A stretch of DNA of 64,000 nucleotides, taken from positions 72,311 through 136,310 of the forward strand of contig JAZKDK010000021.1 in NCBI GenBank assembly GCA_040387615.1. Direction: 5' to 3'. The stretch's first letter is position 1. Each line of letters begins with the position of its first letter. The position numbers were made by a program, and so were the translations under genes. The notes below the pieces were generated by a model, which was not told the origin of the DNA, made no database searches, and worked only from the letters and a program-made list of their open reading frames with translations. Positions 5,443 through 59,312 of the stretch are shown here, piece after piece. The stretch is from Pseudomonadota bacterium (GTDB lineage: Bacteria > Pseudomonadota > Alphaproteobacteria > Rhizobiales > Xanthobacteraceae).

Positions 5443-6600
5443 ATGGCAAAGCGTCGCATTCCAGCGTGGGCGTATGTCCTCGCAGCATTCCTTCTGATCG
5501 GCGGCGTCTATCTTGGCTGGCCGCGGCATCAGACGCCGAACGTAGCCGCTGGAAAATCTGACGCGGGTCCAGCCATCCCGGTTACCGTCGCCAGCGTTTC
5601 AAAAGCTGACTTCCCTGTTTATCTGACCGGACTCGGAACTGTTCAGGGCTTCAACACAGTCACCGTGCGTACGCGCGTCGATGGCGAGATCAACCAGATT
5701 GCCTTCAAGGAAGGCCAGATGGTGAAGGAAAGCGATTTGATCGCGCAGATCGATCCCCGCCCCTTTCAAGCCGCTCTGGATCAGGCGAACGCCAAGAAAG
5801 CCCAGGACGAAGCAAGCCTCGCCAACGCCCAGCGCGACCTTCAACGTTCAACCAAGCTCGGCGATTTTGCGACGAAGCAAACAGTCGATACGCAGACCTC
5901 GGCTGTGCAGCAGCTGACCGCGCAGATCGCTGCCGATCAGGCCACCATCTTCAATGCGCAGACCCAACTCGACTATGCCAGCATCCGCGCGCCGATCTCA
6001 GGCGTGACCGGAATCCGGCAGGTGGACGTCGGCAACATCGTCAATGCGGCGACGCAAACCGGCATCGTGACCATTGCGCAGATCGAACCAATCTCCGTGA
6101 TCTTCACGGCACCCGAAGGCCAGCTCCCGGACATCGCCGCCGCACTTCGCCAGCACGAAACGAAGGTGACCGCATTTACATCTGATGGCCGCAGGATGCT
6201 GTCCGAAGGCACCCTGTCGCTGATGAACAATCAGGTCGATACCACCAGCGGCACCATTCGCCTCAAGGCAACATTCGACAACAAGGACCACGCCCTATGG
6301 CCGGGCCTGTCGGTCTCGACGCGCCTGCTCGTCAACACACTAAAGGACGCAATCGTCATGCCGGACGATGCCGTGCAGCACGGCAATGACGGCCTCTATG
6401 TCTTTGCAGTGGCCGAGGGCAACAAGGCTGACGTGCGCAAGGTCAGGGTCGGCCCTTCGACAGACGGAAAAACACTCGTCGAGAGCGGCGTCTCTGCCGG
6501 TGATCAGGTTGTAACCCGCGGACAGTATCGCGTGCAGCCTGGATCGCCGCTGGCCATCAACGTCGCCAGTTCGGGACAACCTTCGGCAAAGGCCGACTGA
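5443..6600 (+). CDS. RND efflux periplasmic adaptor (MdtA-like)
   Basis: N-terminal TM anchor, VRTRVDGEI, IDPRPFQAAL, IRAPISG, NQVDTTSGTIRLKA. Confidence 0.92.
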   Translation: MAKRRIPAWAYVLAAFLLIGGVYLGWPRHQTPNVAAGKSDAGPAIPVTVASVSKADFPVYLTGLGTVQGFNTVTVRTRVDGEINQIAFKEGQMVKESDLIAQIDPRPFQAALDQANAKKAQDEASLANAQRDLQRSTKLGDFATKQTVDTQTSAVQQLTAQIAADQATIFNAQTQLDYASIRAPISGVTGIRQVDVGNIVNAATQTGIVTIAQIEPISVIFTAPEGQLPDIAAALRQHETKVTAFTSDGRRMLSEGTLSLMNNQVDTTSGTIRLKATFDNKDHALWPGLSVSTRLLVNTLKDAIVMPDDAVQHGNDGLYVFAVAEGNKADVRKVRVGPSTDGKTLVESGVSAGDQVVTRGQYRVQPGSPLAINVASSGQPSAKAD

Positions 6601-6601
6601 C

Positions 6602-9600
6602 ATGAGCTACGGCATTTCCGGTCCCTTCATCCGCTATCCGATCGCGACATCGTTGCTGATGGCCGGGATTCTTTTTGTCGGCCTCGTCGCGTATCCGCTG
6701 CTGCCAGTTGCTCCTCTGCCGCAGGTGGATTTTCCGACCATCCAGGTGTCGGCAAGCCTCCCGGGCGCGAGCCCCGAAACCATGGCGTCGTCGGTGGCGC
6801 AGCCGCTGGAACGGCAGTTGGCCCAGATTCCCGGCGTCGCGCAGATGACGTCGACGAGTTCGCTCGGCTCGACCTCCGTCACGATCCAGTTCGACCTCAA
6901 TCGAAACATCGACGGTGCCGCGAATGACGTGCAAGGGGCGATCAATGCGGCTGGCGGCCAGCTTCCGAAAACACTCCCCAGCCCGCCGACCTATCGCAAG
7001 GTCAATCCTGCCGATTCGCCAATTCTTCTGCTGTCGGTAACGTCCGACACGCTGCCGCTGATCGACGTCAACGATTATGCCGACACCCAGATGGCTCAGC
7101 AGATCAGCCAGATCTCCGGCGTCGCGCAGGTCAGCATCGGCGGCCAGCAAAAACCAGCAATCCGTATCCAGATTGATCCAGCCAAACTGGTCGCGAAAGG
7201 CCTGCAACTCGAAGACGTCCGGAGCCAGATCGCGATCACCACCGTGGATAGCCCCAAGGGCAATATCGACGGTACGACGCGCAGCTTTACCATCTACGCC
7301 AACGACCAGTTGCCGAAGTCGAAGGACTGGAACGACGTCATCGTCGCCTATCGCAACGGCGGCCCGCTGCGCATTCGCGACATCGGACAGGCGGTGTCGG
7401 GGCCGGAGGACGCCAAGCAGGCAGCATGGGCCGACGGCAAGCGCGGCATGTTCCTCGTGGTGTTCAAGCAGCCCGGCGCCAACGTGATCGACACGGTCGA
7501 CAAGATCAAGGCGCAGCTGCCGCGTCTCCTCGCGTCGATCCCTCCGACGGTCAAGGTTTCGGTGTTGAGCGATCGCACCCAGACGATCCGCGCCGCCGTC
7601 GCCGACGTGCAATTCACACTCCTGCTCACAATCTTCCTCGTGGTGATGGTGATTTTCATCTTCCTGCGAAGTCTGTGGGCAACGATCATTCCGAGTGTGA
7701 CGGTCCCGCTGGCGCTGCTCGGCGCCTGCGCGTTGATGTGGGCGTTCGGCTATACGCTCGACAATCTGTCGTTGATGGCGCTGACGATCTCGGTCGGGTT
7801 CGTCGTCGACGACGCTATTGTCATGCTTGAGAACATCAGCCGATATATCGAGCAAGGCGAAGATCCATTTTCCGCGTCCCTCAAAGGCGCGAGCGAAATC
7901 GGCTTTACAATCGTGTCGATCAGCATCTCACTTATTGCCGTGCTTATTCCGCTGTTGCTGATGGGTGGAATCATCGGCCGCTTGTTCCGCGAATTCGCCA
8001 TCACGCTCGCGATGACTATTGTGGTTTCGCTGATCGTGTCATTGACGCTTACGCCGATGATGGCGTCGCGATTTCTGAAGGCGCATACCGGCGAAACGCA
8101 GCATGGAAAATTGTACCAGCTGAGCGAGCGGTTCTTCGACGCGATGCTGCGAGGCTATGAATGGGGCCTCGATCTCGTTCTCCGCTGGCGTTTCGCAACC
8201 CTTTGCGTGTTCTTTGGAACCGTCGCGCTGTCGGTCTATCTGTTCGTGGTCATTCCAAAGGGCTTCTTCCCGCAACAGGATGTCGGCCTCATAACCGGCA
8301 TCACCGAAGGCGGACAGGACATTTCCTTCGCCGAAATGTCGCGCATTCAGGCCGGGATCGGCGAGATCATTCAGAAGGACCCCGCTGTCGCCAGCATTGC
8401 AATGGCCATCGGCGGCGGCGGCAATGCACTGAACAATGGCCGCATGTTCATCACGCTGAAACCTCGTGATGAACGCGACGTGAGCGCACAGCAGATCATC
8501 GCGAGACTAAGGCCGCAGTTCGACAAGCTCGAAGGCGCGCGCGTGTTTCTTCAGGCTGCGCAAGACGTCCGTCTTGGCGGTCGGGCCACGCGGACGCAGT
8601 TCGAATACACATTGCAGGACGCGAACCTCGACGAGTTAAACAGCTGGGCTCCGAAAATTCTGGAAAAGCTGAAGACGCTACCCGAACTGCGCGACGTCGC
8701 AACCGATCAGCAGACTCAAGGCACAACCCTGACGCTGACCATCGACCGTGACACGGCTTCACGCTACGGCATTCAGCCGCAACTGATCGACGACACGTTG
8801 TCGGATGCATTCGGCCAGCGGCAGGTGGCGCAGTACTTCACGCAGGTCAACAGCTATCACGTCATTCTGGAAATCCTGCCCGAACTCCAGGGCAAGGTAG
8901 ACTCACTCGACAAGATCTACATCAAGTCCCCGACAACCGGCGACCAGGTGCCACTGTCGGCATTCGTGCGCTGGAGCACCGTTCCCGTTCGTCCGCTGTC
9001 GATCAGCCATCAGGGCCAGTTCCCGGCGACGACGATCAGCTTCAACCTCGCGCAAGGCACCGCATTGGGTCAGGCAACCGACGCTATTCAGAACGCGGTG
9101 GCGCAGCTCGGCGTACCGCCAACCGTCAACGGCAGCTTCCAGGGCACGGCCCAGGCATTTCAGCAGTCACTTGGCACCATCCCGCTGCTGATCCTCGCCG
9201 CGCTGATCGTGGTCTATCTGATCCTCGGCATCCTCTACGAAAGCTATATCCATCCACTCACGATCATTTCCACGCTGCCTTCGGCCGGCGTCGGTGCGCT
9301 GGCGATGCTGATGCTGTTCGGCTTCGATTTCAGCCTGATCGGCCTGATCGGAATCGTGCTTCTGATCGGCATCGTGAAAAAGAACGGCATTATGCTGGTC
9401 GACTTCGCCATTGCGGCCGAGCGCGAGGAGAACCTTTCGCCGGAGGACGCTATCCGCAAGGCTGCGTTGATCCGCTTCCGCCCGATCATGATGACCACCA
9501 TGGCTGCGCTGCTCGGCGGCGTCCCGCTGATGCTCGGAACGGGCACAGGCTCCGAGATCCGGCAACCGCTCGGATATGCGATGGTCGGCGGCCTCGTTGT

Positions 9601-51952: not shown

Positions 51953-53104
51953 TCATTCCCAGCTCAACGCGCCGCCATTCTGGTATTCGATAACGCGGGT
52001 CTCGAAGAAATTCTTCTCTTTCTTCAGGTCCATCGCCTCCGACATCCACGGGAACGGATTGTCCGTCTCATCGAACACCCGCGTGAGCCCAAGCTGGGCG
52101 CAGCGGCGGTTGGCAATGAAGTGCATATACTGTTCGCACAGCGCCGCGTTCAGGCCCAGGAATCCCCTCGGCATGGTGTCGCGGCTGTAGGCGGCTTCCA
52201 GTTCGGCGGCGTCACGGATCATGCCGCGCACCTCGTCCTGGAATTCGTGCGTCCACAGATGCGGGTTTTCCATCTTGATCTGGTTGATGACGTCGATACC
52301 GAAATTCAGGTGAATCGATTCGTCGCGCAGGATGTACTGATACTGCTCGGCGATGCCGACCATCTTGTTGCGGCGGCCGAGCGACAGGATCTGCGCAAAC
52401 CCGGTGTAGAACCACATCCCCTCGAAGATCACGTAAAACGCGACCAAATCGCGCAGGAACGCCTGATCCGACTCCGGGTCGCCGGTCTTGAAATCCGGGT
52501 TTTCAAGATTCTGCGTATGGTTCAGCGCCCACGCCGCCTTGTCGGTGATCGACGGCACCTCGCGGTACATATTGAACAGCTCGCCCTCGTCGAGGCCGAG
52601 ACTTTCGACGATGTACTGGAACGTGTGGGTGTGGACCGCCTCCTCGAATGCCTGCCGCAGCAGGTACTGGCGGCATTCGGGATTGGTCAGGTGACGGTAG
52701 ATCGCCAGCACGATGTTGTTGGCGACGAGACTTTCCGATGCCGCGAAGAATCCCAGGTTACGCTTGATGGCGCGGCGCTCGTCGTCGGTCAGGCCATCGC
52801 GCGACTTCCACAGCGCGATGTCGGCCTGCATCGAGACTTCGGTCGGCATCCAGTGGTTGTTGCAGCCGGCGAGATACTTCTCCCACGCCCATTTGTATTT
52901 CAGCGGCAGCAACTGATTGACGTCGGCGCGGCAGTTGATCATTGCCTTGTCGTCGACCGACACGCGGCCACCCTTGCGATCGATGGTGCCAAGCCCTGTT
53001 GGATCAAGGCCGGTTTGGTCAACTACTACGGATTCACCGGTCAAGATCGGCGGAAGTGTATTGATGGCTTTGTTCGGTGAAGTTTCGGACCAGTCGAGCA
53101 TCAT
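51953..53104 (-). CDS. nrdB: Ribonucleotide reductase beta subunit, class Ic (R2c, Mn/Fe)-type signature
   Basis: [43 protein letters not shown]; start set at ATG 53104. Confidence 0.95.
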
Positions 53105-53127: not shown

Positions 53128-56046
53128 TTACTGGCAAGCTTCACAGTCGGGATTGTCGATCGAGCACGCCACCACATCGGACAGGTCTGGCGCGGTTGAG
53201 GCCTGCGGGACGACGATCGGCTTGTTCACCGGCATGGAAGCGAGCGACGATGACGACACGGCATTGAGCTTCCCGTCGGTGCCCTTCAGCGTCGACTTCT
53301 CCACATGCGTGGCGCTGCGCGAGCGCAGGTAATAGGTCGTCTTCAGACCGCGCGTCCACGCCAGCCGGTATAATTGATCAAGCTTCTTGCCCGATGGATT
53401 GGCGATATAGAGATTGAGCGACTGCGCCTGATCGATCCATTTCTGTCGCCGCGCCGCCGCTTCGATCAGCCACGTGCTGTCGATCTCGAACGCCGTGGCA
53501 TAGAGCAATTTCAGATCGTCGGGGATGCGATCGATGGAGCCGACGCTGCCGTCGAAGTATTTCAGGTCGGAGACCATCACTTCATCCCACAGGCCGCGCT
53601 CCTTCAGGTCGCGGACGAGAAACTCGTTCACTTCAGTGAAATCGCCCGACATGTTCGATTTGACGTAGAGGTTCTGGTAGGCTGGCTCGATCGACTGCGC
53701 CACGCCGCAGATGTTGGAAATCGTCGCCGTCGGCGCGATCGCCATCACGTTGGAATTGCGCATGCCGGTGGATTGCACCCGCCCCCGCAAGGTCTTCCAG
53801 TCCAGCGTGGTGCTGCGGTCCATCTCAAGCCCCCCGCGTGCATCGGCGAGAATCTCGATGGAGTCGATCGGCAGGATACCCCTCGACCAGAGCGATCCGT
53901 TGAACGATGGATAGCTGCCGCGCTCAGCGGCCAGATCGACCGACGCCGAGATGGCATGGAAGGAAATTGCCTCCATGCTGGTGTCGGCAAAGGCCACCGC
54001 CTGATCCGACGCCATCGGGATTCGCAGCGCATGAAGCGCATCCTGGAAGCCCATCAGACCGAGACCGACCGGACGATGCTTGAGGTTCGAGCGGCGTGCT
54101 TCGGGGATGGTGTAGAAATTGATGTCGATGACGTTATCGAGCATCCGCATCGCGGTTGTGATCGTCCGCTTCAGCCGCGCATGATCGATACCGCCTTCGC
54201 CCACATGGTTGAGCAGGTTGACCGAACCGAGATTGCAGACCGCAACCTCATCGTCCGACGTGTTCAACGTGATCTCGGTGCAGAGATTCGACGAATGGAT
54301 GACGCCGACATGCTGCTGCGGCGAGCGCAGGTTGCACGGGTCCTTGAACGTGATCCACGGATGTCCGGTTTCGAACAGCATGGTCAGCATGCGGCGCCAC
54401 AGATCAGTGGCGCGCAGCTTCTTGAACACGCGCATTTCGCCGCGCGCAACCTTGTCTTCGTAGAAGGCGTAACGCTCGGCGAACGCCTTGCCGTAAAGGT
54501 CATGCAGATCCGGCGTCTCGTCCGGCGAGAACAGCGTCCATTCGCCGTCGGCCTCGACGCGCTGCATAAACAGATCCGGCACCCAGTTCGCGGTGTTCAT
54601 GTCGTGAGTGCGACGGCGGTCGTCGCCGGTGTTCTTTCGCAGATCGAGGAATTCCTCGATATCGACATGCCACGTCTCGAGATAGGCACAGACCGCGCCT
54701 TTGCGCTTGCCGCCCTGATTGACCGCAATTGCCGTGTCGTTGGCGACTTTCAGGAACGGCACCACGCCCTGACTTTCGCCGTTGGTGCCCTTGATGTGCG
54801 CGCCGAGGCCGCGCACGCGGGTCCAGTCGTTTCCGAGACCGCCGGAATATTTCGCCAGCAGGGCATTGTCCTTCACCGACTTGAAGATGCCGTCGAGATC
54901 GTCGGCCACCGTGGTGAGGAAGCAGGAGGACAATTGAGGACGCAGCGTGCCGGAATTGAACAGCGTCGGCGTCGACGCCATGAAGTCAAACGACGACAGC
55001 AGGTTGTAGAATTCGATGGCCCGCGCTTCGCGGTCGATCTCGCGGATCGCAAGGCCCATCGCGACGCGCATAAAGAACGCCTGCGGCAGCTCGATACGGT
55101 TGCCGTCGTCGTGCAGGAAATAGCGGTCGTACAGTGTCTGCAGACCGAGGAACTGGAACGACAGGTCACGCTCAGGCTTCAGCGCCGCGGCGATCCGCGT
55201 CAGGTCATAACGCGCCAGTTCTGGATCGAGCAGTTCGGCCGCGATTCCCTTTTTGACGTAAGCGGGGAAATACTCGACGTAACGCGCCGTCATATCCGCC
55301 TGCGTGGCGCTGATCGGCGTGCCGTGGACGAACGAGAGAACCTCAGTGCGCAGCTTGTCGAGCAGCAGCCGCGCGCTGACGTAAGCGTAGTTCGGCTCCT
55401 GCTCCACCAGCGTGCGCGCGGCCATGATCCCCGCGAGCGCCAGTTCGTCCTGGCTGATGCCGTCATAAAGATTGCGGCGGGTCTCTGCGAGAACGGGGGC
55501 GAAATCGACGCCGTCGAGATTTGCGCAAGCCTCCTGAATGATCAGCGTGAGGCGATCAACGTCGAGCGGCACGCGCGTGCCGTTGCCCAGCGTCACATGC
55601 AATAGCGGCCCGGATGATGTTTTTGCCGGCTTCGCAGCCTCCGCCTCGGCGCGCTGGCGCTGACGTTCGTCGCGGTACAGCACATAGGCACGGGCGACCT
55701 TGTGGTGTTCGCTGCGCATCAGCGCCAGTTCGACCTGATCCTGTACATCCTCAATGTGGAAGGTGCGCCCCTCGCCGATCCTGCGGGTCAGCGCACTCAC
55801 CACCTCGTTGGTCAGTTGCTCGATCACCTCGTGAATGCGGCGCGACGCTGCCGCGGTGTGCCCCTCAACGGCGAGGAACGCCTTGGTCATCGCGATCGAA
55901 ATCTTGCCGGCATCGAACGGCGAGACCGTGCCGTTGCGGCGGATGACCTGCAGCGGCGGCTCTGCGGCAGGGACGGCCAGCGACTCGGAACGCAACTGAA
56001 TGAGAGGAGCGGATTTGGCGGCTTCGCGTTCGAGAGAGAGTGACAT
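53128..56046 (-). CDS. nrdA: Class I ribonucleotide reductase alpha subunit with two N-terminal ATP-cone-like domains
   Basis: [36 protein letters not shown]-terminal [11 protein letters not shown]; start set at ATG 56046. Confidence 0.96.
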
Positions 56047-56170
56047 CGGCAGACCCCGTGCATGTTGCAATTTTTGGGGGCTTGGGCCGAGAGAACGCTG
56101 CATGACGACCGGCGTGCGCCAGCAATGCTGCAAGCGACCTCCGGACACCCCGCCCGTGGACGTTCTTTTG

Positions 56171-56372
56171 TGTCGCGGCAGGTCTCCTGACTCGCAGGTC
56201 GGCGCTGAATCCGGTCTTCCCGATGCGAAAACGCACCAGTGACATCGGTCGGATTCAACTCACTGCTTACAGTTGCGGGGGCAGCGCCGGATTTGCTGCA
56301 TCTAAGTGCAACTCACCGGCTTCCCATTTTCACCGCTAGGCCTTGCGGCTTTGCGAAACCTCGACGTCTACA
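56171..56372 (-). ncRNA. Cobalamin riboswitch upstream of nrdAB
   Basis: Minus strand AAAAUGGGAAGCCGGUG...AAAUCCGGCGCUGCCCCCGCAACUGUAA...GUCACUG...CGGGAAG...GAGUCAGGAGACCUGCC; ends approximate. Confidence 0.92.
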
Positions 56373-56380
56373 TCTGGTAG
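56365..56380. promoter_or_regulatory. Candidate NrdR box
   Basis: cgtCtAcATcTgGtag matches the conserved C-A-AT-T-G positions of the acaCwAtATaTwGtgt consensus, at the 5' end of the nrdA leader. Confidence 0.5.
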
Positions 56381-56644
56381 CGTTCGAGTGACGCTGTCAA
56401 GCACCAGTGGATGTGAATAACGGGACCAAAGCGACAAACGCGCGAAATGCTCAGCAAATCGCGGCAGATTTTTTTCTGGTGCGATGAGCAATGAGCACGC
56501 AACGCCTCGTGCAGCGGATGGCTCTCGGCGAATCGCCGTGCGCGGAATCTCATTTCGCCTCTGCCCACTCACCTCACCCGCGCATCCGGCACCAGTGTGG
56601 TGGGAAGCTTTCCCTTTGACCCGCCGGAGCGCGCTTCTCATAAC

Positions 56645-56845
56645 ATCAGCATCGCGGTTCTGCGGATCGGTGGTCCGGAGCCAAGAGGGAATGCGGTGCG
56701 CGCGATCCAGTTGGATTGCGCAAGTCCGAAGCTGCCCCCGCAACTGTAAGCGGCGAGCCTTTGTCCATCACTGCCACTGCGGCGCAAGCCGCGGGAAGGC
56801 CGGACTTAAGGCGTCGACCCGTGAGCCAGGAGACCTGCCGCGATT
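56645..56845 (+). ncRNA. Cobalamin riboswitch upstream of metE
   Basis: AAGAGGGAAUGCGGUG...AAGUCCGAAGCUGCCCCCGCAACUGUAA...GCCACUG...CGGGAAG...GAGCCAGGAGACCUGCC; ends approximate. Confidence 0.93.
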
Positions 56846-56957
56846 ACATAACGTCCACGGGCGGGGTGCCCCGGTGTGTCGCTTGCGAGAGGACGGCACC
56901 GCCGTCTCTGTTGTTCGCGCATGTCCGGCTCCTGCCCCAACATCACGGGGTTTTGCA

Positions 56958-59312
56958 ATGTCGGGTTTTGTTTCTGCTCCATCCATTCCTGTCGCCACGC
57001 TGGGCGTGCCGCGCATCGGTCCACGCCGCGAACTCAAAATGGCGTTGGAAAAATTCTGGTCCGGCAAGATCGACGCGGCCGCGTTGCGCGAGGCCGCTGC
57101 GAAAATTCGCACCGATAACTGGAAGCGCCAGCGCGATCTCGGCGTCACCGTGATCCCCTCGAATGATTTCTCGCTCTACGATCAGGTGCTCGATACCAGC
57201 GCCATGGTCGGCGCGATTCCGAAGATCTACGGCTGGACCGGTGGGCCGGTGTCGTTCGAGACCTATTTCGCGATGGCGCGCGGCAGCCAGAAGGACTTCT
57301 CTAATCAAGATTCGGGCGATCATGATGGCTGCACGCATGGTCATAGCCACAACCACGGCGTGCCCGCACAGGAAATGACCAAATGGTTCGACACCAACTA
57401 CCACTACATGGTGCCGGAATTCGCCAGGGATCAGACTTTCACTCTCGCCTCCACCAAGGCGATCGACGAATACCGCGAGGCCAAGGCACTCGGGATTCAG
57501 ACCCGGCCGGTGCTGGTCGGCCCCGTCACGTTCCTCAAGCTCGGCAAGGGCGAGAACCGGCTGTCGCTGTTGCCGAAGCTGCTGCCGGTTTACATCGAGG
57601 TGCTCAACAGGCTCGCCGCGGAAGGCGCGGACTGGGTGCAGATCGACGAGCCGTGTCTCGTCCTCGATCTCGACGCGGATGAAAAAGCTGCGCTGAAAAC
57701 GGCCTATAGCGAGTTCGCGCTGAAGGTCCCCGGTGTCAAGATCATGCTGGCGACCTACTTCGGCGAACTTGGCGACAACGCCGATCTCGTCACCAAATTT
57801 CCGGTGGCCGGGGTACATCTCGATCTGGTGCGCGGCAAAGGCCAGATCAATACGGTCTTGAGCAAGATGCCTGCGGATCGCGTGATCTCGCTGGGCGTGA
57901 TTGATGGCCGCAACATCTGGCGCGCGGATCTCACAAAGGTTCTCGATCTCGCCGGAAAGGCTATTGCGGTGCGCGGCGGCGCGGATCGTATCCAGATCGC
58001 GACGTCGTGCTCGATGCTGCACGTGCCAATTGATCTCGATCAGGAAACCGATCTCGATGCGGATCTGAAAAGCTGGCTCGCGTTCTCGGTGCAGAAGATG
58101 AGCGAACTGGCCGCGCTCAGCCACGCGCTGTCGTCGGGGCGTGAGTCCGTCAAAGATGTGTTTGCGGCCTCCGATGATGCCGCGAAGAAGCGCGCCTCCT
58201 CGCCGAAGATCCACAATCCGGCGGTGAAATCGCGTGCGGCGGAAAAATCCTCCGCGCTTTCGGAACGCAAGAGTGCGTTCAGCGCACGGCAGAAGCTTCA
58301 GAGCAAGGTGCTCGGCCTGCCCTCGTTCCCGACCACCACCATCGGCTCGTTCCCGCAGACCGAAGAGGTGCGCAAGGCGCGCGCGGCCCACACCAAAGGC
58401 CAGCTCAGCGACGCCGAGTATGATGCGTTCCTGCGCAAGGAAACCGAAAAAGCCGTACGCTGGCAGGAGGACATCGGCATCGACGTGCTGGTGCACGGCG
58501 AGTTCGAGCGCAACGACATGGTGCAGTATTTCGGCGAACAACTGTCGGGTTACGCCTTCACCAAACACGGCTGGGTGCAGAGCTACGGCTCGCGCTACGT
58601 TCGCCCGCCGATCATCTTTGGCGACGTGTCGCGCCCGAAGCCGATGACGGTCGGCTGGTCGTCCTACGCGCAGTCTCTCACTACGTTGCCGATGAAGGGC
58701 ATGCTCACCGGTCCGGTCACCATGCTGCAGTGGTCGTTCGTGCGCGACGACCTGTCGCGCGATCAGGTCTGCCGCCAGATCGCCTTCGCGCTGCGCGACG
58801 AGGTGACTGATCTCGAGAAGGCCGGCATCGGCGTGATCCAGATCGACGAGCCGGCGTTGCGCGAGGGTCTTCCGCTGCGCAAGGGCGACTGGAAGGCCTA
58901 TCTCGACTGGGCAGTGGACTGTTTCAAGGTTTCGCAAGCCGGCGTGAAGGACGAAACCCAGATCCACACCCACATGTGCTACGCCGAGTTCAATGACATC
59001 ATCGATGCCATCGGCGCGATGGACGCCGACGTGATCTCGATCGAGACCTCACGCTCGAAGATGGAACTGCTCGACGCCTTCGTGACTTACAAGTATCCGA
59101 ACGAAATCGGACCGGGTGTCTACGACATCCACTCGCCGCGCGTGCCGGAGGTGCCGGAAATGATGGAGCTGATCGGCAAGGCGCGCCGCAACCTGTCGCC
59201 GGACCAGATCTGGATCAATCCGGATTGCGGTCTCAAGACACGCGGCTGGCCGGAAGTCCGATCCGCGTTGACCAACATGGTCGAAGCGGCAAGGCAGGCG
59301 CGCGTGGCTTAG
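56958..59312 (+). CDS. metE: Cobalamin-independent methionine synthase
   Basis: PRIGPRRELK, EMTKWFDTNYHY, PTTTIGSFPQT, VHGEFERNDMV, IHTHMCY (Zn), GPGVYDIHSPR, NPDCGLKTR; start set at ATG 56958. Confidence 0.97.
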   Translation: MSGFVSAPSIPVATLGVPRIGPRRELKMALEKFWSGKIDAAALREAAAKIRTDNWKRQRDLGVTVIPSNDFSLYDQVLDTSAMVGAIPKIYGWTGGPVSFETYFAMARGSQKDFSNQDSGDHDGCTHGHSHNHGVPAQEMTKWFDTNYHYMVPEFARDQTFTLASTKAIDEYREAKALGIQTRPVLVGPVTFLKLGKGENRLSLLPKLLPVYIEVLNRLAAEGADWVQIDEPCLVLDLDADEKAALKTAYSEFALKVPGVKIMLATYFGELGDNADLVTKFPVAGVHLDLVRGKGQINTVLSKMPADRVISLGVIDGRNIWRADLTKVLDLAGKAIAVRGGADRIQIATSCSMLHVPIDLDQETDLDADLKSWLAFSVQKMSELAALSHALSSGRESVKDVFAASDDAAKKRASSPKIHNPAVKSRAAEKSSALSERKSAFSARQKLQSKVLGLPSFPTTTIGSFPQTEEVRKARAAHTKGQLSDAEYDAFLRKETEKAVRWQEDIGIDVLVHGEFERNDMVQYFGEQLSGYAFTKHGWVQSYGSRYVRPPIIFGDVSRPKPMTVGWSSYAQSLTTLPMKGMLTGPVTMLQWSFVRDDLSRDQVCRQIAFALRDEVTDLEKAGIGVIQIDEPALREGLPLRKGDWKAYLDWAVDCFKVSQAGVKDETQIHTHMCYAEFNDIIDAIGAMDADVISIETSRSKMELLDAFVTYKYPNEIGPGVYDIHSPRVPEVPEMMELIGKARRNLSPDQIWINPDCGLKTRGWPEVRSALTNMVEAARQARVA

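Follow-up and report, generated by a model that had tools for sequence, protein, structure and literature searches.

Class Ic ribonucleotide reductases (RNRs) are an established subclass whose beta subunit (R2c) uses a Mn(IV)/Fe(III) cluster, with the chemistry reviewed in PMC8463856. The published definition of the subclass asks for a redox-inert residue where the tyrosine would stand, namely Phe, Leu or Val (PMC3267527). In Chlamydia trachomatis the R2c (structures 1syy, 4d8f and 4m1i) is encoded in an nrdA-nrdB pair, and the literature gives its NrdA three ATP-cones. A second described protein is the R2 subunit of Saccharopolyspora erythraea, for which structure 6y2n comes from the Hogbom laboratory (PMC7467353). 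Here we describe an nrdA-nrdB pair, predicted to encode a class Ic RNR and preceded by a cobalamin riboswitch, in a 64,000-nucleotide stretch of contig JAZKDK010000021.1 (assembly GCA_040387615.1, positions 72,311 to 136,310). We refer to this whole stretch as the window.

Control of RNR genes by vitamin B12 has also been described. B12 elements located before B12-independent RNR genes, in genomes that encode the B12-dependent enzyme NrdJ, have been read as a sign of B12 repression; this was stated in 2004, citing earlier work (PMC545781). Descriptions of such repression date from 2003-2004 onward and include the comparative-genomics rule of Rodionov and colleagues. The cobalamin riboswitch of Streptomyces nrdABS is cited as an experimental case in PMC12528414, in which Streptomyces coelicolor has a riboswitch before a B12-independent class I nrdAB and an NrdJ in the same genome. 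The window locus has the same arrangement. It differs in that the Streptomyces enzyme is called class Ia, and in that no nrdS-like regulator gene follows nrdB in the window, where the next gene encodes a chemoreceptor.

Taken as a whole, the locus is best explained as a class Ic nrdAB operon with a B12-repressed leader, which provides an alternative to NrdJ in a host that scavenges B12. We hold this explanation with high confidence. It involves three features of the window:

51953 to 53104, minus strand: nrdB, predicted class Ic-type (R2c) RNR beta subunit, 383 amino acids plus stop (Pfam PF00268, 313 bits)
53128 to 56046, minus strand: nrdA, class I alpha subunit, about 972 amino acids (NCBIfam NF005544, 1728 bits)
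56160 to 56378, minus strand: cobalamin riboswitch aptamer in the nrdA leader (Rfam RF00174, 115.1 bits, E 4e-28, full match to model positions 1-189)

The two genes form an operon for an oxygen-dependent class I RNR, with 23 nt between the end of nrdA and the start of nrdB on the same strand. The automatic open reading frame (ORF) of nrdB is longer and begins at a TTG at 53137, within the last codons of nrdA. We favor the ATG at 53104, which has an AGGA 5 nt upstream; this is also the start chosen in a preliminary description of the locus, made from the sequence alone, and its limits for the gene remain the best reading. The product matches NCBIfam NF005550 with 677 bits (cut-off 309). For nrdA, the automatic ORF runs to a GTG at 56148, 12 nt past the riboswitch aptamer. 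The ATG at 56046 is the likelier start, since the NF005544 alignment begins only at residue 56 of that ORF. Pfam domains of NrdA include the ATP-cone (PF03477), the all-alpha domain (PF00317) and the barrel (PF02867). The ATP-cone is detected in two stretches; multiple cones are a feature shared with the C. trachomatis alpha subunit.

Class Ia R2 proteins have Asp as the first metal ligand and Tyr at the radical site. To locate the corresponding residues, we aligned the window NrdB to the C. trachomatis R2c chain retrieved by the PDB search, and counted residues from the ATG at 53104:

52733 to 52735, minus strand: Glu124, first metal ligand, codon GAA (C. trachomatis E89)
52619 to 52621, minus strand: Phe162, at the position of the class Ia radical tyrosine, codon TTC (F127)
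52631 to 52642, minus strand: Glu155-Ala-Val-His158, the ExxH ligand pair of helix 2 (E120 and H123)
52310 to 52423, minus strand: second ligand set, comprising Glu228, Tyr257, Glu262 and His265
52421 to 52423, minus strand: Glu228, in FEG (E193)
52334 to 52336, minus strand: Tyr257, five residues ahead of Glu262 (Y222)
52319 to 52321, minus strand: Glu262, in DESIH (E227)
52310 to 52312, minus strand: His265, in DESIH (H230)
52850 to 52852, minus strand: Trp85, in HWMP, codon TGG (radical-transfer Trp51)
51983 to 51985, minus strand: Tyr374, in the C-terminal IEYQ, codon TAC (Y338, inter-subunit radical-transfer tyrosine)
Tyr164, placed by the alignment (Y129)

All 11 of the C. trachomatis R2c landmark residues that we checked are kept, with identical spacing. 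The preliminary description had assigned the Glu and Phe codons to these positions, and both are correct to the base. Its spacing, from Glu124 to Glu155 (+31), His158 (+34) and Phe162 (+38), is indeed that of E89, E120, H123 and F127, and the residues that it called intact (Glu228, Glu262, His265, Tyr257, Trp85 and Tyr374) are all there.

The same residues occur throughout the close relatives. A protein search yielded 8000 scored relatives, of which the best 120 were inspected; these are 79-91% identical to the window NrdB and include proteins from Tardiphaga, Bradyrhizobium, Microvirga, Hyphomicrobium, Granulicella and Crossiella. The Glu is found in 119 of the 120 and the Phe likewise in 119, the misses being failures of the search pattern and no contrary residue appearing. 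In a set of 222 proteins, 219 have Glu/Phe, two fall outside the pattern, and one is a more distant Asp/Tyr protein. All 80 related genome loci (see below) have Glu/Phe. Given this conservation, the state in the window is neither chance nor a sequencing slip. The C-terminal tail of NrdB is also kept in its closest homologues.

Structure matches point to the same family. The best PDB match is 6y2n (E 1.6e-206, about 88% identity over 338 aligned residues), followed by the C. trachomatis R2c structures 4d8f, 1syy and 2ani at E values near 1e-135 (3.4e-135 for 1syy). The window NrdB is identical to the C. trachomatis R2c at 59% of 340 residues. Subunits of the ordinary classes Ia and Ib match only at 1e-41 and weaker. 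The window NrdB and the S. erythraea R2 have the same C-terminal tail and share the motif FFA(T/A)xESLVANN. They differ in host phylum (Actinomycetota for S. erythraea) and at the N-terminus: here the window protein carries a longer extension, of about 45 residues, that is unrelated.

We considered class Ia identity, which is ruled out by Glu124 together with Phe162; NF006576, a class Ia model, reaches 72.9 bits where its cut-off is 346, and the class Ib NCBIfam models are below their cut-offs as well. An inactive beta-prime subunit is also ruled out, as the ligands are all intact and this is the only NrdB of the genome. The database entry of a close Hyphomicrobium homologue is labeled "class Ia".

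R2lox proteins deserve separate mention, as they have a ferritin-like fold, Glu and Phe at both diagnostic positions and a Mn/Fe cluster (PMC9314684), and were once confused with R2c (PMC9314684; PMC3824934). We give almost no credence to the idea that the window NrdB is an R2lox protein. Every R2lox NCBIfam model stays far under its cut-off (53.5 bits against 194 for NF006200, the best of them, and 32-44 bits against 274-346 for the others). For the R2lox structure 3ee4 the E value is no better than 1e-7, compared with 1e-135 to 1e-206 for the R2c structures, so the grouping with R2lox that the preliminary description had named as a reason to drop its view was not found. The C-terminal tyrosine and the R1-binding tail, which separate R2c from R2lox (PMC3824934), are both present in the window protein and lacking in R2lox. 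The gene is also in an operon with nrdA, which has the same orientation and ends 23 nt before it, and the genome has no other nrdB. The preliminary description had proposed a class Ic signature; by all of the residues that mark the class, and by the cognate NrdA, the protein has one.

The riboswitch assignment is strong. The match of 115.1 bits compares with an RF00174 gathering score of 31.5 bits. The aptamer ends about 113 nt ahead of the nrdA start, leaving an expression platform of about 113 nt. Its strand is that of nrdA and it immediately precedes nrdA-nrdB, as expected from the B12 riboswitch gating proposed in the preliminary description. No sigma-70 consensus promoter was called in the nrdA leader, although there is a TTGACA at 56395-56400.

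A second riboswitch lies back to back with the first, and the two divergent aptamers are 260 bp apart:

56638 to 56856, plus strand: cobalamin riboswitch upstream of metE (RF00174, full length, 123 bits)
56985 to 59312, plus strand: metE (TIGR01371, 1100 bits)

A back-to-back riboswitch pair is likewise seen in relatives L005, L006, L021, L022, L029, L045 and L057.

The rest of the genome (4.3 Mb in 91 contigs, 95% complete) belongs to an Afipia-like member of the Nitrobacteraceae/Bradyrhizobiaceae, which fits an environmental alphaproteobacterium. Two features outside the window bear on the locus:

Contig C2, 136606 to 140346: intact NrdJ, 1246 amino acids (NF005736, 2355 bits, cut-off 1737)
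Contig C14, 219214 to 219445, minus strand: third cobalamin riboswitch, preceding a 706-amino-acid TonB-dependent receptor (Plug plus beta-barrel)

Apart from the window nrdB, the genome has no PF00268 gene, and no second NrdB or NrdF was found there. NrdJ is the only other large-subunit homologue. A genome search for nrdJ and for other nrdB or nrdF genes had been suggested in the preliminary description; its outcome (one intact NrdJ and nothing further), taken with the riboswitch, lends computational support to the proposal made there that an R2c enzyme may be used as the B12-riboswitch-gated alternative to NrdJ.

We found three cobalamin riboswitches genome-wide: those of nrdAB, metE and the TonB-dependent receptor. 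Searches of this 95%-complete genome gave no match to CobN or CobS. With this combination, the organism looks like a B12 scavenger or importer rather than a producer. The B12 regulon is textbook-like: riboswitches control uptake and the two B12-independent isozymes, but not the B12-dependent ones. MetH is matched in two halves, on contig C18 (145782-147611, plus strand; profile positions 2-610) and contig C81 (11078-12871, minus strand; profile positions 593-1182). Both halves are mid-contig, in frames of their own of about 650-675 amino acids, and MetH looks genuinely split rather than divided by a contig break.

To see how common the arrangement is, we scanned one genome per species. This gave at least 595 confirmed relatives, and the best 80 loci were analyzed: 47 from Alphaproteobacteria, 26 from Actinomycetota and 7 from Acidobacteriota. 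In an Rfam scan of these loci, 6 were too short upstream to judge. Among the 74 evaluable loci, 55 have a cobalamin riboswitch just upstream of nrdA, on the nrdA strand:

Pseudomonadota: 37 of 42 loci with an upstream riboswitch
Acidobacteriota: 6 of 7
Actinomycetota: 12 of 25

The riboswitch-positive loci include those of two Saccharopolyspora species (L056 and L062), with which 6y2n groups and whose genomes also encode NrdJ. They also include that of Wenjunlia vitaminophila, a member of the Streptomycetaceae, in which precisely this combination of a Glu/Phe nrdAB and a riboswitch ahead of it is found. This species came from a second homologue search, in which the best 120 matches include no Streptomyces. 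Its locus (L085) encodes an Nramp-family (MntH-like) transporter directly downstream of riboswitch-nrdA-nrdB, at 6317-7561. This is suggestive, as a hint at manganese supply for a Mn/Fe enzyme.

NrdJ was looked for in 46 genomes of the related loci. An NrdJ-type gene is present in each of the 27 genomes with the riboswitch; it is clear in 23 and either split or located at contig ends in 4. Three genomes (those of L007, L023 and L054) lack any NrdJ; in these the Glu/Phe nrdAB is the only RNR with a large subunit, and it has no upstream riboswitch, as the logic of B12 control predicts. NrdJ looks necessary for the switch, and not sufficient. In three other genomes (contigs G012:C16, G033:C70 and G045:C119, corresponding to loci L039, L070 and L083) NrdJ is matched in 2-3 in-frame pieces within ORFs of 1150-1780 amino acids, the pattern expected of NrdJ genes that contain inteins.

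A further cobalamin riboswitch occurs on the same strand just downstream of nrdB in many relatives:

L016, 6554-6753
L024, 6712-6908
L029, 5667-5861
L032, 5692-5901
L040, 5858-6071
L057, 5788-5988
L069, 6556-6759
L073, 5663-5888
L075, 7377-7597
L083, 5691-5911

In the Amycolatopsis loci L069, L075 and L083 there is no upstream switch, and the downstream one is the sole riboswitch.

The distribution of nrdB is patchy, and clade-wise in the lineage of the window. The gene is found in 26 of 36 other species of the genus (87-97% identity), in 11 of 150 genomes sampled evenly from the order, and in none of 300 sampled evenly from the class, where there was no other high-identity match. In one species of the genus (G524:C6:1067332-1068451) a frameshift divides nrdB into two frames that cover residues 2-263 and 262-383, with 94% identity in each, which marks either a pseudogene or a sequencing error. 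A quick maximum-likelihood tree of NrdB places the window with Afipia and 6y2n with Saccharopolyspora, and requires three changes of phylum label. Cross-phylum identity is 75-88%, with about three phylum blocks in the tree. This would fit a few old transfers between phyla, followed mainly by vertical descent.

From these data we propose how the operon may work. The mRNA is predicted to begin with the cobalamin riboswitch, and when cobalamin is present the leader would most likely turn nrdAB off. Shut-off is probably at translation initiation or mRNA stability, as the leader has no detectable terminator. NrdJ, encoded elsewhere, would then supply deoxynucleotides. When nrdAB is expressed, by analogy with C. 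trachomatis, a Mn(IV)/Fe(III) cluster would store the oxidizing equivalent in place of a tyrosyl radical, and would pass it via Trp85 and the C-terminal Tyr374 to NrdA. Such an enzyme would be expected to lack a tyrosyl radical and to tolerate H2O2. It is probably a self-sufficient default reductase and not a mere back-up, with NrdJ used when B12 can be imported.

Several findings weigh against a B12-repressed class Ic operon in a scavenging host. Class Ic is defined by cofactor chemistry, which a sequence cannot display. A 608-amino-acid metagenome protein (P0121) belongs to the same family, has Asp/Tyr as in class Ia, and at 65% identity is nearer to the window NrdB than is the C. trachomatis R2c (59%). 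Given such a relative, the Glu/Phe state is not one single deep clade, and family membership alone does not fix the cofactor. The leader yielded no terminator-like site on the nrdA strand, and a hairpin over the GGGG ahead of the start codon is no better than in shuffled sequence (z = -0.01). No riboswitch is found at 19 of the 74 evaluable loci, and 15 of these genomes have NrdJ, so the coupling is not obligatory. Since the genome is a draft, cobN and cobS are not proven to be absent. The record of P0121 contains an internal duplication of about 220 residues, which is probably an assembly artefact.

The position of P0121 agrees with published phylogenies, in which class Ia (Pseudomonas aeruginosa) and class Ic (Chlamydia) share a single NrdAz clade, in which many branches are "class Ic-like". 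Large phylogenies already hold many class Ic-like bacterial sequences (PMC3824934 among them). Class Ic is a residue and cofactor state inside a family, not a clade. We base the assignment on the residues of the window NrdB and on how nearly identical it is to the S. erythraea protein, and the predicted Mn/Fe cofactor has the same basis (about 88% identity). That protein is reported to carry Mn/Fe (Kutin et al. 2016/2019).

The Glu/Phe scaffold might hold another cluster in this organism, for example Fe/Fe or Mn/Mn. The scaffold is prone to mismetallation (PMC8463856), and the Asp/Tyr relative at 65% identity indicates that the family switches cofactor type. We consider another cluster unlikely, given that the ligands and second-sphere residues are all those of the C. 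trachomatis enzyme and that a Phe at the radical site leaves a diiron center no tyrosine to oxidize. In the characterized enzyme the Mn/Fe form is the maximally active one (PMC8463856), and an Nramp-type manganese transporter gene stands right after nrdB in one relative, the Streptomycetaceae locus described above.

The leader might instead be a relic, or might serve the divergent metE, with nrdAB controlled by NrdR, oxygen or metals in place of B12. The expression platform, with neither a detectable terminator nor a significant sequestering helix, is in line with this, as is the quarter of related loci that have no riboswitch though most of those genomes have NrdJ. A predicted nrdA riboswitch of P. 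aeruginosa is non-functional (PMC12528414). We find a relic leader quite improbable here: the full model is matched, at 115 bits against a threshold of 31.5, on the nrdA strand and about 113 nt from the start, and metE is served by a riboswitch of its own on the opposite strand. The aptamer is also at the same position in 55 of 74 loci from three phyla, and was never seen without NrdJ in the genomes examined for it. A B12-repressed class Ic operon thus remains our preferred explanation.

The preliminary description had stated that the combination of a class Ic enzyme with a B12 riboswitch was not known to have been characterized. This is fair in the narrow sense, as full-text literature searches found no explicit link between class Ic and cobalamin riboswitches (the terms co-occur in unrelated passages). 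The rarity that it implied was overstated, with the riboswitch present at 55 of 74 loci. Both the enzyme and the switch are known and their pairing is the majority state among relatives, common in soil bacteria, and the window locus is therefore an ordinary member of its group.

For the organism, the annotation is corrected: the sole class I RNR of this Afipia-like bacterium is predicted to be class Ic, not class Ia. The genome keeps two B12-independent enzymes, an RNR and a methionine synthase, under riboswitch control. More generally, free-living soil bacteria commonly have predicted class Ic enzymes, most of them behind cobalamin riboswitches, and this provides background for choosing a tractable system that is not a pathogen.

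The census also allows a broader and more tentative idea, which we regard as a genuine possibility without favoring it. The Glu/Phe nrdAB of soil bacteria and its riboswitch may be one cohesive module, exchanged a few times among Actinomycetota, Alphaproteobacteria and Acidobacteriota and then kept. The riboswitch at 55 of 74 loci and never seen without NrdJ, the cross-phylum identity of 75-88% and the roughly three tree blocks are all compatible with this. Against a special link, there are also class Ia nrdAB operons gated by riboswitches, and the switch is missing from half of the actinobacterial loci. Literature searches found no paper stating that class Ic is the B12-independent partner of NrdJ. 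If the idea is correct, the main role of class Ic would be as that partner in aerobic bacteria that produce or scavenge B12, and it would be the default enzyme in scavengers. In that case, adapting intracellular pathogens to oxidative or nitrosative stress would not be the primary significance of class Ic.

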